Positions 3,339-19,630 of a DNA stretch of 20,033 nucleotides are shown piece after piece (position 1 is the first letter of the stretch; every line of letters begins with the position of its first letter). Source of the DNA: Escherichia coli (lineage in GTDB: Bacteria > Pseudomonadota > Gammaproteobacteria > Enterobacterales > Enterobacteriaceae); the NCBI RefSeq assembly GCF_003334315.1, contig NZ_QOWR01000069.1; one strand, given 5' to 3'. Made by a program: the position numbers and the translations under genes. The notes beneath the pieces are model-generated. The model was not told where the DNA came from, searched no databases, and was given only the letters and a program-made list of their open reading frames with translations.

Positions 3339-3368
3339 AAAGCCCGTGAATATTCACGGGCTTTTTTT
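3339..3368 (+). terminator. Rho-independent terminator downstream of dsbA
   Basis: Inverted repeat agcccgtg / cacgggct with 6-nt loop, followed by a run of seven T. Confidence 0.8.
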
Positions 3369-3475
3369 ATTATTTAATAAATATAAATACATTCTGATAA
3401 TGCATCCTGCCGCTGGACATTATTTCAGCATAAGTGGATATTCAAAGTTTTGCTGTTTTATCAGGGAATATTTAT

Positions 3476-4906
3476 ATGATACGTAAGTCAGCTACAGGTG
3501 TTATTGTTGCGTTAGCCGTAATCTGGGGTGGTGGCACATGGTACACAGGTACGCAAATTCAGCCTGGTGTCGAAAAATTTATTAAAGATTTTAACGATGC
3601 TAAAAAGAAAGGTGAACATGCCTACGATATGACGTTAAGTTATCAAAATTTTGACAAAGGCTTTTTTAATTCCCGTTTTCAAATGCAAATGACATTCGAT
3701 AACGGTGCACCCGATCTCAATATCAAGCCAGGCCAGAAAGTTGTATTTGATGTGGATGTTGAGCACGGTCCGTTGCCCATCACAATGTTAATGCATGGTA
3801 ATGTCATCCCAGCACTGGCAGCGGCAAAAGTGAACTTAGTGAATAATGAACTGACACAACCGCTATTTATCGCCGCGAAAAATAAATCGCCCGTGGAAGC
3901 GACATTGCGATTCGCGTTTGGTGGCTCATTCTCTACGACATTAGATGTTGCCCCTGCAGAGTATGGAAAGTTTTCTTTTGGTGAGGGCCAGTTTACTTTT
4001 AATGGTGATGGTAGTTCATTGTCTAACCTGGATATTGAAGGCAAAGTCGAAGATATTGTTCTGCAATTATCACCAATGAACAAAGTAACGGCAAAAAGTT
4101 TTACCATTGATTCTCTGGCGCGATTAGAAGAAAAGAAATTTCCGGTTGGTGAAAGCGAGTCGAAATTTAATCAGATTAACATTATCAATCACGGGGAAGA
4201 CGTTGCCCAAATCGATGCTTTCGTTGCAAAAACCAGGCTGGATCGCGTTAAAGACAAAGATTATATCAATGTCAATCTCACCTACGAACTTGATAAGTTA
4301 ACAAAAGGGAATCAGCAACTCGGTAGTGGTGAGTGGTCATTGATTGCTGAATCTATTGATCCCTCAGCAGTGCGCCAATTTATCATCCAGTATAACATTG
4401 CGATGCAGAAGCAGCTTGCTGCACACCCTGAGTTAGCAAACGATGAAGTTGCTCTGCAAGAAGTGAATGCTGCATTGTTCAAAGAGTATTTACCGTTATT
4501 ACAAAAAAGTGAGCCGACCATTAAACAACCGGTAAGATGGAAGAACGCACTCGGCGAACTAAATGCCAATCTGGATATCAGTATTGCCGACCCAGCCAAA
4601 TCTTCATCATCCACAAACAAAGATATCAAATCGCTCAATTTTGATGTGAAGTTACCGCTTAATGTCGTCACAGAAACCGCAAAACAGCTTAATTTATCTG
4701 AAGGAATGGATGCGGAAAAAGCGCAAAAGCAGGCTGATAAACAAATCAGCGGGATGATGACATTAGGTCAGATGTTTCAGTTAATCACGATTGACAACAA
4801 TACCGCCTCGCTGCAGCTGCGTTATACACCGGGTAAAGTTGTTTTTAACGGACAGGAGATGAGCGAAGAAGAATTTATGTCTCGTGCCGGACGTTTTGTT
4901 CATTAA
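3476..4906 (+). CDS. yihF: DUF945-family protein YihF, N-terminal membrane anchor or signal, function unknown
   Basis: ORF-track ORF begins at GTG 3434; I prefer ATG 3476 (MIRKSATGVIVALAVIWGGG..., 476 aa), preceded by an AGGGA SD. Hydrophobic N-terminus, remainder hydrophilic. Confidence 0.85.
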   Translation: MIRKSATGVIVALAVIWGGGTWYTGTQIQPGVEKFIKDFNDAKKKGEHAYDMTLSYQNFDKGFFNSRFQMQMTFDNGAPDLNIKPGQKVVFDVDVEHGPLPITMLMHGNVIPALAAAKVNLVNNELTQPLFIAAKNKSPVEATLRFAFGGSFSTTLDVAPAEYGKFSFGEGQFTFNGDGSSLSNLDIEGKVEDIVLQLSPMNKVTAKSFTIDSLARLEEKKFPVGESESKFNQINIINHGEDVAQIDAFVAKTRLDRVKDKDYINVNLTYELDKLTKGNQQLGSGEWSLIAESIDPSAVRQFIIQYNIAMQKQLAAHPELANDEVALQEVNAALFKEYLPLLQKSEPTIKQPVRWKNALGELNANLDISIADPAKSSSSTNKDIKSLNFDVKLPLNVVTETAKQLNLSEGMDAEKAQKQADKQISGMMTLGQMFQLITIDNNTASLQLRYTPGKVVFNGQEMSEEEFMSRAGRFVH

Positions 4907-4910
4907 AATA

Positions 4911-4941
4911 CTCACTCGCCTCTGCTCATTCAGAGGCGAGT
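4911..4941. terminator. Hairpin between convergent yihF and yihG, likely bidirectional terminator
   Basis: Inverted repeat actcgcctctg / cagaggcgagt (4914-4924 / 4931-4941) with a 6-nt loop, in the 40-bp gap between two convergent stop codons. Confidence 0.55.
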
Positions 4942-4946
4942 AAAAC

Positions 4947-5879
4947 TTACTTATTCTGACGCTGTGATGACATGAGAGACGTCAGAAGCCGGTCTTTTTC
5001 CTGCCACAATGAGTTCAGCCATTGCTGAAAATGGCGCTTAAAGCTTTTGTCATTGATGTAGTCGCCATGTAACTCATCGGCAATAGGCTGTAAATCCACA
5101 TGTACGACAATCCGCGTCAGTTTACCGCTTAACATATCGAAGAACGGCTGACGGTTATTGTCCGGATAACACAGCGTAACATTAAGCAGTTTATCGAATT
5201 GTTTACCCAGTACATTTAGCGCCATCGCAATGCCTGCCGCCTTTGGTGGCAACAAGTTTTGAAAAGTGGAGTGGGTTTGCTGATGTTTTTCTTGCGTGAA
5301 ACGGGAGCCTTCAACGAAATTGACAATGGTGGTGGGATGCAGGCGAAACTTTTCACAAGAACGCCGAGTGGTTTCAACATCTTTACCACGTCGCTCCGGA
5401 TGACGTAATAAATAAGCGCGGGAATAACGCTTCATAAACGGCATATCCAGCGACCAGCACGCCAGGCCAAGAAATGGCACCCAGGCCAGCTGTTGCTTGA
5501 GGAAATATTTATTCATCGGAATGTGCTTACGAAACAGCACGCACAGTACGACAATATCTGCCCAACTACGGTGGTTACAAATAAGCAGATACCAGTTCTT
5601 CTTACTTAACCCTTCCAGCCCGTGAACTTCCCATTGCAGGTGTGGGTTCAGATGCAGTAATACCGCCAGACCTTCACACCAGCAATACATCATAAAATCA
5701 CAAAAACGCGAAACCTTTCGCCAAATGACTGGCACAGGTAGCAATAGTTTTACAATCCCGGCAATGATGATCGGGACGGAACAAAAAATAGTGACCAAAA
5801 TGGTCAATACGATACTCAGCAAAAGGGTTATCGCAGCGAGTATTCTCGTCATAATGAATTTATTCAAAAGGTTAGCCAT
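4947..5879 (-). CDS. yihG: PlsC-family (lysophospholipid) acyltransferase YihG
   Basis: Acyltransferase HX4D motif (CNHRSWADI) and N-terminal transmembrane segment; start chosen at the MANLLNKF... Met (310 aa) rather than the ORF-track upstream Met at 5903. Confidence 0.85.
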
Positions 5880-5969
5880 AGACAGTGCGCTAAAGAAGCG
5901 CAAGGCGCAGATTTTAGCAGAAAACGACCCAAATAACGGATGATCCTTAAGGAGAAAAATAATTCATAT

Positions 5970-5978
5970 CTATCCACA
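5970..5978. promoter_or_regulatory. DnaA-box-like 9-mer (ctatccaca, 8/9 match to TTATCCACA) in yihG-polA divergent promoter region
   Basis: Direct sequence match to the DnaA box consensus with one mismatch. Confidence 0.35.
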
Positions 5979-6110
5979 TTAGAAAAAATCCCATTATCTC
6001 AATTATTAGGGATGGATTTATTATTAACTGCATGAAAAACAAAGACAAACATCATGCTGTAAAAAGCATGATAATAAATTAAAAGCGATGTAAATAATTT
6101 ATGCACAAAG

Positions 6111-6119
6111 TTATCCACA
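6111..6119. promoter_or_regulatory. Consensus DnaA box TTATCCACA about 125 bp upstream of the polA start
   Basis: Exact 9/9 match to TTATCCACA; polA transcription is reported to be DnaA-responsive. Confidence 0.55.
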
Positions 6120-6242
6120 TGACGATTTGCGAGCGATCCAGAAGATCTACAAAAGATTTTCACGAAAAGCGGTGAAAAACTCATGTTTTCATCCTGTCTG
6201 TGGCATCCTTTACCCATAATCTGATAAACAGGCACGGACATT

Positions 6243-9029
6243 ATGGTTCAGATCCCCCAAAATCCACTTATCCTTGTAGATGGTTCATCTTATCTTTATC
6301 GCGCATATCACGCGTTTCCCCCGCTGACTAACAGCGCAGGCGAGCCGACCGGTGCGATGTATGGTGTCCTCAACATGCTGCGCAGTCTGATCATGCAATA
6401 TAAACCGACGCATGCAGCGGTGGTCTTTGACGCCAAGGGAAAAACCTTTCGTGATGAACTGTTTGAACATTACAAATCACATCGCCCGCCAATGCCGGAC
6501 GATCTGCGTGCACAAATCGAACCCTTGCACGCGATGGTTAAAGCGATGGGACTGCCGCTGCTGGCGGTTTCTGGCGTAGAAGCGGACGACGTTATCGGTA
6601 CTCTGGCGCGCGAAGCCGAAAAAGCCGGGCGTCCGGTGCTGATCAGCACTGGCGATAAAGATATGGCGCAGCTGGTGACGCCAAATATTACGCTTATCAA
6701 TACCATGACGAATACCATCCTCGGACCGGAAGAGGTGGTGAATAAGTACGGCGTGCCGCCAGAACTGATCATCGATTTCCTGGCGCTGATGGGTGACTCC
6801 TCTGATAACATTCCTGGCGTACCGGGCGTCGGTGAAAAAACCGCGCAGGCATTGCTGCAAGGTCTTGGCGGACTGGATACGCTGTATGCCGAGCCAGAAA
6901 AAATTGCTGGGTTGAGCTTCCGTGGCGCGAAAACAATGGCAGCGAAGCTCGAGCAAAACAAAGAAGTTGCTTATCTCTCATACCAGCTGGCGACGATTAA
7001 AACCGACGTTGAACTGGAGCTGACCTGTGAACAACTGGAAGTGCAGCAACCGGCAGCGGAAGAGTTGTTGGGGCTGTTCAAAAAGTATGAGTTCAAACGC
7101 TGGACTGCTGATGTCGAAGCGGGCAAATGGTTACAGGCCAAAGGGGCAAAACCAGCCGCGAAGCCACAGGAAACCAGTGTTGCAGACGAAGCACCAGAAG
7201 TGACGGCAACGGTGATTTCTTATGACAACTACGTCACCATCCTTGATGAAGAAACACTGAAAGCGTGGATTGCGAAGCTGGAAAAAGCGCCGGTATTTGC
7301 ATTTGATACCGAAACCGACAGCCTTGATAACATCTCTGCTAACCTGGTCGGGCTTTCTTTTGCTATCGAGCCAGGCGTAGCGGCATATATTCCGGTTGCT
7401 CATGATTATCTTGATGCGCCCGATCAAATCTCTCGCGAGCGTGCACTCGAGTTGCTAAAACCGCTGCTGGAAGATGAAAAGGCGCTGAAGGTCGGGCAAA
7501 ACCTGAAATACGATCGCGGTATTCTGGCGAACTACGGCATTGAACTGCGTGGGATTGCGTTTGATACCATGCTGGAGTCCTACATTCTCAATAGCGTTGC
7601 CGGGCGTCACGATATGGACAGCCTCGCGGAACGTTGGTTGAAGCACAAAACCATCACTTTTGAAGAGATTGCTGGTAAAGGCAAAAATCAACTGACCTTT
7701 AACCAGATTGCCCTCGAAGAAGCCGGACGTTACGCCGCCGAAGATGCAGATGTCACCTTGCAGTTGCATCTGAAAATGTGGCCGGATCTGCAAAAACACA
7801 AAGGGCCGTTGAACGTCTTCGAGAATATCGAAATGCCGCTGGTGCCGGTGCTTTCACGCATTGAACGTAACGGTGTGAAGATCGATCCGAAAGTGCTGCA
7901 CAATCATTCTGAAGAGCTCACCCTTCGTCTGGCTGAGCTGGAAAAGAAAGCGCATGAAATTGCAGGTGAGGAATTTAACCTTTCTTCCACCAAGCAGTTA
8001 CAAACCATTCTCTTTGAAAAACAGGGCATTAAACCGCTGAAGAAAACGCCGGGTGGCGCGCCGTCAACGTCGGAAGAGGTACTGGAAGAACTGGCGCTGG
8101 ACTATCCGTTGCCAAAAGTGATTCTGGAGTATCGTGGTCTGGCGAAGCTGAAATCGACCTACACCGACAAGCTGCCGCTGATGATCAACCCGAAAACCGG
8201 GCGTGTGCATACCTCTTATCACCAGGCAGTAACTGCAACGGGACGTTTATCGTCAACCGATCCTAACCTGCAAAACATTCCGGTGCGTAACGAAGAAGGT
8301 CGTCGTATCCGCCAGGCGTTTATTGCGCCAGAGGATTATGTGATTGTCTCAGCGGACTACTCGCAGATTGAACTGCGCATTATGGCGCATCTTTCGCGTG
8401 ACAAAGGCTTGCTGACCGCATTCGCGGAAGGAAAAGATATCCACCGGGCAACGGCGGCAGAAGTGTTTGGTTTGCCACTGGAAACCGTCACCAGCGAGCA
8501 ACGCCGTAGCGCGAAAGCGATCAACTTTGGTCTGATTTATGGCATGAGTGCTTTCGGTCTGGCGCGGCAATTGAACATTCCACGTAAAGAAGCGCAGAAG
8601 TACATGGACCTTTACTTCGAACGCTACCCTGGCGTGCTGGAGTATATGGAACGCACCCGTGCTCAGGCGAAAGAGCAGGGCTACGTTGAAACGCTGGACG
8701 GACGCCGTCTGTATCTGCCGGATATCAAATCCAGCAATGGTGCTCGTCGTGCAGCGGCTGAACGTGCAGCCATTAATGCGCCAATGCAGGGAACCGCCGC
8801 CGACATTATCAAACGGGCGATGATTGCCGTTGATGCGTGGTTACAGGCTGAGCAACCGCGTGTACGTATGATCATGCAGGTACACGATGAACTGGTATTT
8901 GAAGTTCATAAAGATGATGTTGATGCCGTCGCGAAGCAGATTCATCAACTGATGGAAAACTGTACCCGTCTGGATGTGCCGTTGCTGGTGGAAGTGGGGA
9001 GTGGCGAAAACTGGGATCAGGCGCACTAA
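6243..9029 (+). CDS. polA: DNA polymerase I
   Basis: 928 aa; N-terminal 5'-3' exonuclease region and family-A polymerase motifs DYSQIELR (motif A), [14 protein letters not shown] (motif B), QVHDEL (motif C). Confidence 0.98.
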
Positions 9030-9176
9030 GATTCGCCTGAACATGCCCTTTTTTCGTAAGTAAGCAACATAAGCTGTCACGTTTTGTGATGGCTATTAGA
9101 AATTCCTATGCAACAACTGAAAAAAAATTACAAAAAGTGCTTTCTGAACTGAACAAAAAAGAGTAAAGTTAGTCGC

Positions 9177-9285
9177 GTAGGGTACAGAGGTAAGATGTTC
9201 TATCTTTCAGACCTTTTACTTCACGTAATCGGATTTGGCTGAATATTTTAGCCGCCCCAGTCAGTAATGACTGGGGCGTTTTTTA
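9177..9285 (+). ncRNA. spf: Spot 42 small regulatory RNA
   Basis: Sequence gtagggtacagaggtaagatgttctatctttcagacc... ending in the terminator hairpin ccccagtcagtaatgactgggg plus T-run, recognised as Spot 42; -10-like taaagt at 9164-9169. Confidence 0.9.
9195..9242 (+). CDS. spfP: 15-aa small protein encoded within Spot 42 (SpfP-like), MFYLSDLLLHVIGFG
   Basis: ATG at 9195 preceded by AGAGG; 15 sense codons then TGA, translated by hand. A dual-function Spot 42 peptide has been reported. Confidence 0.5.
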   Translation: MFYLSDLLLHVIGFG

Positions 9286-10313: not shown

Positions 10314-10556
10314 ATAGAGCGAGGACGCTAACAGGAACAATGACTCAGGATGAGGGTCAGGAGCGCCAGGAGGCGAAGACAGAGGATTGTCAGGAAGACA
10401 AACGTCCGGAGACGTAATTAAACGGAAATGGAATCAACACGGATTGTTCTGGCTAATGGAAAAACAGGGTGTGTTGGCGGCCTGCAAGGATTGTAAGACC
10501 CGTTAAGGGTTATGAGTCAGGAAAAAAGGCGACAGATTACTCTGTCGCCTTTTTTC
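10314..10556 (+). ncRNA. csrC: CsrC, CsrA-sequestering sRNA
   Basis: About 243 nt with 14 GGA triplets, mostly as AGGA/CAGGA, far above chance; -10-like taaagt at 10301-10306; ends in terminator aaaaaaggcgacag...ctgtcgcctttttt; sits between engB and yihI. 5' end approximate. Confidence 0.85.
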
Positions 10557-10624
10557 TTTGCTTGCTTTCTGTTAGATTCCGCCGCAAATCTATACTGAAT
10601 AAAACGGCTAAAAGACGAACCATT

Positions 10625-17350: not shown

Positions 17351-17439
17351 CGCACCATCGTGCAAAAGGGCTGCACCACGATGTGAATGTTGCACCAATA
17401 TAGTGCTTCAATGGAAACATTAAGCACCATGTTGGTGCA
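17351..17439 (-). promoter_or_regulatory. Cluster of NtrC enhancer binding sites upstream of glnAp2
   Basis: Repeated TGCACC/GGTGCA half-sites: tgcaccaatatagtgct (17391-17407), agcaccatgttggtgca (17423-17439), weaker copies at 17351-17388. Confidence 0.65.
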
Positions 17440-17590
17440 ATGACCTTTGGATAACCCTTTTTATGCTCCGTGAAAGCGATCACAAAGGGACTCTGCAATA
17501 CTTGTTTGCGGAGGATGTTTGTGATCCTGTTTTGTAGTGCGATTAATCCGTGTACAATAACGCGCTATTTCTAATGCCTGAGGCAAAGTT

Positions 17591-19414
17591 GTGATCGAAA
17601 AATTGCGTAATATCGCCATCATCGCGCACGTAGACCATGGTAAAACCACCCTGGTAGACAAGCTGCTCCAACAATCCGGTACGTTCGACTCTCGTGCCGA
17701 AACCCAAGAGCGCGTGATGGACTCCAACGATTTGGAGAAAGAGCGTGGGATTACCATCCTCGCGAAAAACACCGCTATCAAATGGAATGATTACCGTATC
17801 AACATCGTTGATACCCCGGGGCACGCCGACTTCGGTGGTGAAGTTGAACGTGTAATGTCCATGGTAGACTCAGTGCTGCTGGTGGTTGACGCATTTGACG
17901 GCCCGATGCCGCAAACGCGCTTCGTAACCAAAAAAGCGTTTGCTTACGGCCTGAAGCCGATTGTTGTTATCAACAAAGTTGACCGCCCTGGCGCGCGTCC
18001 TGATTGGGTTGTGGATCAGGTATTCGATCTGTTCGTTAACCTCGACGCGACCGACGAGCAGCTGGACTTCCCGATCGTTTACGCTTCTGCGCTGAACGGT
18101 ATCGCGGGTCTGGACCACGAAGATATGGCGGAAGACATGACCCCGCTGTATCAGGCGATTGTTGATCACGTTCCTGCGCCGGACGTTGACCTTGACGGTC
18201 CGTTCCAGATGCAGATTTCTCAGCTCGATTACAACAGCTATGTTGGCGTTATCGGCATTGGCCGCATCAAGCGCGGTAAAGTGAAGCCGAACCAACAGGT
18301 CACTATCATCGATAGCGAAGGCAAAACCCGCAACGCGAAAGTCGGTAAAGTGCTGGGCCACCTCGGTCTGGAACGTATCGAAACCGATCTGGCGGAAGCT
18401 GGCGATATCGTGGCGATCACGGGCCTTGGCGAACTGAACATTTCTGACACCGTTTGCGACACGCAAAACGTTGAAGCGCTGCCGGCACTCTCCGTTGATG
18501 AGCCGACCGTTTCTATGTTCTTCTGCGTTAACACCTCGCCGTTCTGCGGTAAAGAAGGTAAGTTCGTAACGTCTCGTCAGATCCTGGATCGTCTGAACAA
18601 AGAACTGGTACACAACGTTGCGCTGCGCGTAGAAGAAACCGAAGACGCCGATGCGTTCCGCGTTTCTGGTCGTGGCGAACTGCACCTGTCTGTTCTGATC
18701 GAAAACATGCGTCGTGAAGGTTTCGAACTGGCGGTATCCCGTCCGAAAGTTATCTTCCGTGAAATCGACGGTCGTAAACAAGAGCCGTATGAAAACGTGA
18801 CGCTGGACGTTGAAGAACAGCATCAGGGTTCTGTAATGCAGGCGCTGGGCGAACGTAAAGGCGACCTGAAAAACATGAATCCAGACGGTAAAGGCCGCGT
18901 ACGTCTCGACTACGTGATCCCAAGCCGTGGTCTGATTGGCTTCCGTTCTGAGTTCATGACCATGACTTCCGGTACTGGTCTGCTGTACTCCACCTTCAGC
19001 CACTACGACGACGTACGTCCGGGTGAAGTGGGTCAGCGTCAGAACGGCGTACTGATCTCTAACGGTCAGGGTAAAGCGGTCGCGTTCGCGCTGTTCGGTC
19101 TGCAGGATCGCGGTAAGCTGTTCCTCGGTCACGGTGCAGAAGTTTACGAAGGTCAGATTATCGGTATTCATAGCCGCTCTAACGACCTGACTGTAAACTG
19201 CCTGACCGGTAAGAAACTGACCAACATGCGTGCTTCCGGTACTGACGAAGCCGTTGTTCTGGTTCCGCCTATCCGCATGACTCTGGAACAAGCTCTGGAG
19301 TTCATCGATGATGACGAACTGGTAGAAGTGACCCCGACCTCTATCCGTATTCGTAAACGTCACCTGACGGAAAACGATCGTCGTCGCGCCAACCGCGCAC
19401 CGAAAGACGATTAA
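17591..19414 (+). CDS. typA: Ribosome-associated translational GTPase BipA/TypA
   Basis: 607 aa, GTG start with GAGG SD; G-domain motifs [18 protein letters not shown]; EF-G-like domain architecture. Confidence 0.97.
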
Positions 19415-19431
19415 TTTCGTTTTTTAGTCAT

Positions 19432-19464
19432 AAAAAACCTGCCAGCGATGGCAGGTTTTTTTTT
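19432..19464 (+). terminator. Rho-independent terminator of typA
   Basis: A-run, stem cctgcca / tggcagg with 4-nt loop, then nine T. Confidence 0.85.
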
Positions 19465-19630
19465 GCCTGTCGTGAGCACTCAGCAATGCGAGTATCTCCC
19501 TTATAAGTCTGTGGTTACGTCAATAGAGAGCTTTGTCACAATTATCTGCAAAGTCATACGCCGTTAATTGCTTTCTTTTTTGGCGTAAGCGTAAGATGCC
19601 TCATCTGGTTTAAACCAAAAGGATTAAACA

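Follow-up and report, generated by a model that had tools for sequence, protein, structure and literature searches.

Escherichia coli has, in addition to its principal lysophosphatidic acid acyltransferase (LPAAT), PlsC, a second LPAAT, YihG, which has been demonstrated by experiment (PMC7277886). YihG complements a temperature-sensitive plsC strain when it is overproduced (Toyotake et al., 2020; PMC7277886), while the endogenous enzyme places cis-vaccenate at the sn-2 position of phospholipids; sn-2 18:1 is lost in the yihG deletion mutant, which also swims and overproduces FliC (PMC7277886). YihG harbors the acyltransferase motifs I–III without motif IV (PMC7277886), shares about 18% identity with PlsC, and groups with Shewanella PlsC4 in a subfamily present in many gamma-proteobacteria (PMC9541089). 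In the DNA described here, a stretch of 20,033 nucleotides from E. coli (contig NZ_QOWR01000069.1 of assembly GCF_003334315.1; “the window” below), the yihG gene lies tail to tail with yihF, a gene for a DUF945 protein that is a paralog of YdgA. YdgA is oligomeric in the E. coli envelope according to a passage in PMC2663777 that cites Stenberg (2005), and its Yersinia pestis ortholog has been found in membrane fractions of high relative molecular mass (PMC2663777).

The reading that we prefer, with a probability of about 0.8, is that yihF and yihG are two unrelated core genes of E. coli whose adjacency requires no joint function, YihG being the LPAAT described above and YihF a lineage-restricted, faster-evolving paralog of YdgA. 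The yihF coding sequence occupies positions 3476–4906 on the plus strand (ATG start, 476 amino acids), and yihG occupies 4947–5879 on the minus strand (ATG at 5879, stop at 4947, 310 amino acids). A mechanically called open reading frame of yihF reaches back to a GTG at 3434, but the start was placed at ATG 3476 because homologs begin with MIRKS or MKKS and an AGGGA Shine-Dalgarno sequence precedes this codon. Several E. coli records match the examined 2.65-kb region with 100% identity, and the DNA represents E. coli chromosome, with the K-12-type gene order mobB-mobA-yihD-srkA-dsbA-yihF-yihG-polA. Indeed, the RefSeq annotation of K-12 contains exactly two coding sequences here with the same coordinates, and both genes are 100% identical to those in K-12 strain records; together with the Pfam and NCBIfam matches given below, this confirms the gene names and the DUF945 assignment made in the initial annotation of this DNA from its sequence.

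The two genes are distributed independently. Within the species both belong to the core, yihF being found in 5424 and yihG in all of 5426 complete E. coli genomes. Beyond it, yihG directly adjoins dsbA in Salmonella, Klebsiella, Enterobacter and Citrobacter amalonaticus, in the order polA-yihG-dsbA-srkA, whereas Superficieibacter, with dsbA-DUF945-polA, no longer has yihG at the locus. A survey of 80 genome loci, retrieved with a 10-sequence DUF945 alignment and sorted by their neighbors, is dominated by ydgA: about 75 of them are manA-ydgA loci of Enterobacterales, nearly all with fumA upstream, and no yihG homolog was seen in the stretch fetched around them. The order dsbA-DUF945-yihG-polA is confined, among the 80 loci, to Escherichia and Pseudocitrobacter, and in record CP087880.1 two tandem and highly divergent DUF945 genes share the slot between dsbA and yihG. 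The dsbA/yihG junction is, in short, a variable DUF945 slot holding zero to two copies depending on the genus, with variants at positions 5001–7959, 3704–5182 and 5001–6545 of loci L096, L036 and L082, respectively; distant DUF945 genes have unrelated neighbors. Probably, a DUF945 gene landed in this convergent junction in a few Enterobacteriaceae lineages. Since the two genes are convergent, they cannot be co-transcribed, and neither co-transcription nor conserved co-occurrence, the marks by which a coupled pair is recognized, was found for them. Because of the independent distribution and the convergent layout, the adjacency is treated here as historical and not functional. The initial annotation had implied a lipid or envelope unit made of the two genes and had itself named independent distribution as a refuting result; the yihG-only and DUF945-only loci show just such a distribution, and the idea of a unit is not supported.

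The two genes face each other across a gap of 40 bp (4907–4946) holding a single hairpin at 4914–4941, with an 11-bp stem, a 6-nt loop, a calculated free energy of −19.9 kcal/mol and a z-score of −6.3 relative to shuffled sequences; the coordinates and the hairpin calculation bear out the layout first noticed. The hairpin had been called bidirectional, a description that is only half supported. On the minus strand, the yihG side, the stem is followed by the U-rich tail UAUUUUAAU and a consensus scan calls a terminator, whereas on the plus strand, the yihF side, the tail is AAAACUUACUU and the same scan calls none. The hairpin probably acts as an intrinsic terminator of yihG, and it may stop yihF transcripts less strongly. 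Its stem core, CTCGCCTC/GAGGCGAG, is retained in Escherichia fergusonii, in Pseudocitrobacter and at loci L096 and L097, where the DUF945 proteins are merely 28–46% identical; the yihG/dsbA junction of Salmonella has a different hairpin.

The retained core bears on an alternative in which the two genes work as one functional module: YihF would bind or move the phospholipid species that YihG makes, or would regulate YihG. Both products are membrane proteins, the adjacency and the hairpin core are conserved in Escherichia, Pseudocitrobacter, L096 and L097, the two genes have been swapped as a single block between Escherichia lineages (see below), and the Y. pestis YdgA ortholog is labeled “putative phospholipid-binding protein” (PMC2663777), which is an annotation rather than a test. 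Such a module is improbable, however: the genes have no transcript in common; yihG is present but yihF absent in Salmonella, Klebsiella, Enterobacter and Citrobacter; at this locus of Superficieibacter, a DUF945 gene is present but yihG is not; ydgA adjoins manA in every other enterobacterial genome retrieved; and the paper that describes the YihG phenotypes mentions yihF zero times (PMC7277886). Moreover, any two neighboring genes would show block exchange. Two observations nevertheless weigh against two wholly independent genes: wherever a DUF945 gene shares the slot with yihG, the convergent layout and the same hairpin core are kept, and in Escherichia the two genes have been replaced together. 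Because of these, a small remainder, roughly a tenth of the weight, is left for a loose link between yihF and yihG. Our preferred reading remains that of unrelated neighbors, in which the shared hairpin is simply the terminator of convergent gene ends.

As for yihG, its description as poorly characterized is outdated in view of the published work (PMC7277886, PMC9541089). YihG matches the NCBIfam equivalog NF058536 (LPAAT_acyl_YihG) with 426.4 bits against a cut-off of 260 over residues 16–302, as well as the Pfam Acyltransferase family PF01553, and its newer RefSeq name is “1-acylglycerol-3-phosphate O-acyltransferase YihG”. The gene is the type member of the PlsC4/YihG subfamily itself, and differs in nothing from it. 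The HX4D signature and the membrane anchor that had been noticed earlier are both present: motif I is H103-R-S-W-A-D108 (5556–5573, minus strand), and a long hydrophobic stretch for membrane association covers residues 11–53 (5721–5849, minus strand), with Kyte-Doolittle scores of 1.6–2.9 in 19-residue windows over residues 4–56. Motif III, FxEGxR, is found as F188-V-E-G-S-R193 (5301–5318, minus strand). The membrane-bound enzyme uses the catalytic dyad of HX4D to acylate the sn-2 position of phospholipids, an activity published for YihG itself; the acyl chain is cis-vaccenoyl under physiological conditions and also 14:0 when YihG is overproduced. No solved relative was found by a sequence search of the PDB with YihG alone.

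YihF, by comparison, is still the uncharacterized DUF945 protein that the initial annotation took it to be. It matches Pfam PF06097 (DUF945) from residue 4 to 464, corresponding to model positions 3–459 of 460 (E = 8.8e-109), and the NCBIfam equivalog PRK11367 with 1045 bits against a cut-off of 738; NCBIfam labels the protein hypothetical. The family is small: a search of 1.84 billion representatives gave 537 clusters at 50% identity. Its retrieved members belong to Enterobacterales and, among the beta-proteobacteria, to the Bordetella/Achromobacter group. An exhaustive search of representatives yielded an alignment of 92 sequences, while a word-indexed search gave close relatives only. In this alignment only H97, G98, P99 and N458 are invariant, and W22, G25, P101 and G459 are conserved in at least 90% of the sequences. 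Judged from the alignment, the invariant residues do not look like a catalytic set. The only strongly conserved motif of the family is E96-H97-G98-P99-L100-P101, encoded at 3761–3778 (plus strand). A Pfam scan of all the 92 members detected no family besides DUF945, and no significant sequence relative of solved structure was found in the PDB (best E = 0.16 with YihF alone and 0.17 with the family profile).

The single N-terminal hydrophobic segment attributed to YihF as an anchor is likewise real. Residues 6–23, ATGVIVALAVIWGGGTWY (3491–3544, plus strand), are its sole hydrophobic segment and would serve as an uncleaved signal anchor; the W17/G19/W22/G25 pattern within and next to it is conserved in at least 90% of the 92 homologs. 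The same anchor is found in E. coli YdgA, which is 34% identical to YihF over the full length and shares with it the HGP motif (HGPFP in YdgA, HGPLP in YihF) and a WKNxxGE motif. The two paralogs differ in their history: YdgA always adjoins manA and is 47–80% identical across the enterobacterial genera retrieved, whereas YihF is encoded at the dsbA locus of few genera by a GC-poor gene, and is only 44–46% identical between Escherichia species.

No paper dedicated to YihF was found, and the literature on YihF, DUF945 and YdgA consists of list entries only: a binding site of NsrR in chromatin immunoprecipitation (ChIP), a set of genes up-regulated under multiple stresses, an overexpression screen for Ala-Ala tolerance, and a cystobactamid pull-down without knockout phenotype. 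The first of these can be located in the window. The yihF coding sequence contains, at 3738–3760 (plus strand), the NsrR-type 11-1-11 inverted repeat AAGTTGTATTTGATGTGGATGTT, which has one exact match in the window and directly precedes the codons of the invariant HGP motif. The corresponding site of strain CFT073, differing by one base, has a ChIP-seq peak shared with K-12 ChIP-chip data (PMC5320621). Many “ydgA” matches in the literature concern unrelated genes of fungi or Bacillus that happen to have the same name, and one Salmonella paper names its YdgA a DNA topoisomerase.

The structure prediction and structural search proposed for YihF gave a confident model, and the fold searches with it returned generic curved sheets only. 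The AlphaFold2 model built from the 92-sequence alignment has a predicted local distance difference test score (pLDDT) of 94.4 and a predicted TM-score (pTM) of 0.89. In the model, residues 3–45 form a single continuous helix containing the hydrophobic segment, followed up to residue 294 by an antiparallel meander of about 15 strands, several of which are 14–17 residues long, and then by a helical hairpin at 296–343, further strands, and helices at 395–433 and 464–475; about a quarter of the protein is predicted to be helical. DUF945 models of other species labeled YdgA superpose on it with TM-scores of 0.8–0.9, and a Foldseek search of AFDB50, the clustered AlphaFold database, brought up DUF945 entries only among the 50 matches listed. 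When averaged over the family, hydrophobic and polar residues alternate along the strands, and one face of the YihF sheet is therefore apolar.

From this model a mechanism can be drawn, which we hold tentatively and at less than even odds. YihF would be a bitopic protein of the inner membrane, kept there by its uncleaved signal anchor, with the remainder in the periplasm, where some 20 amphipathic strands would form a large antiparallel sheet next to amphipathic helices. Rather than catalyzing a reaction, YihF may bind or scaffold a hydrophobic component of the envelope, be it a lipid or an envelope protein that is lipid-modified or unfolded. It counts against this proposal that it is drawn from a predicted structure; the sheet may be curved or open, and its apolar face may be an open groove or lie buried under the helices. 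More speculatively, and with a distinctly lower probability, the DUF945 proteins YdgA and YihF might be an unrecognized class of proteins that carry or pass on lipid or other hydrophobic envelope cargo on the large amphipathic sheet, anchored in the inner membrane, periplasmic and possibly oligomeric, with YihF as a fast-evolving accessory copy in a variable, block-exchanged slot.

Two known architectures invite comparison with the YihF model. JlpA, an outer-surface lipoprotein adhesin of Campylobacter, belongs to an unrelated family and resembles YihF in architecture only; its structure (PDB 3uau) is an unclosed half beta-barrel. The other comparison is with AsmA and TamB, and amounts to an alternative in which YihF would be a small AsmA/TamB-like “beta-taco” for periplasmic lipid transfer, anchored in the inner membrane and shuttling phospholipid toward the outer membrane in an open hydrophobic groove. 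In their general layout, AsmA-like proteins also have an N-terminal anchor and then amphipathic strands. We consider this alternative unlikely, slightly more so than the broader carrier idea, since an alignment of the DUF945 profile with E. coli AsmA by hhalign has a probability of 2.9%, 0 of the 92 members match any Pfam family of the AsmA clan, the top 60 PDB matches include no lipid-transfer structure, and the helical quarter of YihF may fill the concave face. YihF is also shorter than AsmA-like and TamB proteins (DUF490, DUF3971) and has long helical hairpins, and the structural score of these proteins against it is no better than that of outer-membrane barrels. At the sequence level, then, homology with AsmA is rejected on the hhalign and clan results, and the anchored hydrophobic binder or scaffold is the mechanism that we retain, at the strength given above.

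A different role is suggested by database labels: many E. coli and Shigella entries of YihF are named “GTP-binding protein” or “Endonuclease”. That YihF is either one can be given almost no credence. A Walker A motif, GxxxxGK[ST], is absent from its sequence, where GK occurs three times but never before S or T; Pfam gives DUF945 alone in all the 92 members and NCBIfam says hypothetical; the predicted sheet meander is unlike the fold of P-loop nucleoside triphosphatases; and the bulk of the protein, lying behind a signal anchor, is probably in the periplasm. Many truncated YihF sequences of Shigella and E. coli are likewise filed in the databases under these two names, which are equally unsupported.

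The sequence of yihF stands apart from that of its neighbors. Its GC content is 41.6%, and 39.8% at third codon positions (GC3), whereas the window has a GC content of 50% and the neighboring genes a GC3 of 47–55%. The 154-bp spacer between dsbA and yihF has a GC content of just 29%. The ratio of nonsynonymous to synonymous substitution rates (dN/dS) of yihF is 0.14–0.28, compared with 0.01–0.15 for dsbA, yihG and polA in the same genome pairs; that of srkA is up to 0.37 in one partial comparison. Furthermore, yihF is part of a divergent block of about 2.8 kb (3400–6200) that covers its promoter region, both genes with the hairpin between them, and the yihG-polA spacer. When E. coli and E. fergusonii (locus L086) are compared in 100-nt bins, the flanks are 95–100% identical while yihF is 48–68% and yihG 72–86% identical, and the edges are sharp. 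On the left, identity drops from 94–99% to 50–65% directly after the dsbA terminator hairpin AAAGCCCGTGAATATTCACGGGCTTT (3339–3364), a perfect 11-bp stem with a terminator-like T-run on the plus strand. Synonymous sites are saturated in both yihF and yihG, as opposed to a synonymous divergence (dS) of 0.08–0.16 in srkA, dsbA and polA. Because of the sharp-edged drop in identity and the saturated synonymous sites, the block is taken to differ in ancestry from its flanks within Escherichia, and the comparison suggests that an allele was replaced long ago, through recombination or horizontal transfer. Within E. coli, yihF and yihG are core genes with ordinary diversity and at least 95% nucleotide identity in the best full-gene matches, and several complete genomes (H1–H5, H11, H36) have yihF or yihG split by insertion sequences (IS), IS1 or IS903B. 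On the whole, yihF is a lineage-specific and compositionally atypical insertion rather than a neutral core gene.

The initial annotation saw no sign of a mobile or defensive origin in the sequence, and the searches agree with it, with the caveat that yihF is itself a GC-poor, lineage-specific insertion. Neither YihF nor YihG matched any family of the PADLOC defense models, no relative of YihF was found in 50,697 phage genomes, and YihF had no significant match among PHROGs (best E = 0.064). Eleven matches in the plasmid collection are mostly chromosome-sized records or fragments. A defense, phage or plasmid origin is rejected on these results.

The same data bear on a reading in which YihF, exposed to the periplasm, serves as a target of phages, colicins or contact-dependent toxins or as a shield against them. 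It would fit the dN/dS above that of dsbA, yihG and polA, the occurrence of zero, one or two very divergent DUF945 copies in one slot across genera, the GC3 of 40%, the replaced allele block within Escherichia, and the IS insertions and truncated yihF copies in some E. coli and Shigella. Its chance is nevertheless small, about that of the functional module: the dN/dS is well under 1, diversity within E. coli is ordinary, with at least 95% nucleotide identity in the best matches, homologs in PADLOC, PHROGs, phages or genuine plasmids are lacking, and the literature search found no phage or colicin phenotype for yihF. We keep to a lineage-restricted paralog of YdgA next to an unrelated acyltransferase.

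Some other features may be listed. Locus L089, whose second gene encodes the same protein as a Bordetella bronchiseptica entry of AFDB with 674 amino acids, carries two tandem DUF945 genes at 3425–7025, the second of which has a YbjN domain (PF10722) fused to its C-terminal end. Elsewhere in the window, four Rfam small RNAs scored above the gathering threshold, all on the plus strand: Spot 42 (spf) at 9167–9285, CsrC at 10314–10567, ES222 at 17402–17509 and STnc370 at 19399–19467.

Both yihF and yihG are already annotated core genes of K-12 and the function of yihG is published, so that the finding is routine in this respect. It shows that the adjacency of the two genes should not be taken as partnership, and that the sequence lends no support to the name “GTP-binding protein” carried by many YihF and YdgA entries. 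DUF945 is a small family with a confidently predicted periplasmic fold, its retrieved members being gamma- and beta-proteobacterial. With a conserved ydgA and a variable yihF in one genome, E. coli offers a clean genetic system for studies of lipid and protein traffic in the envelope.

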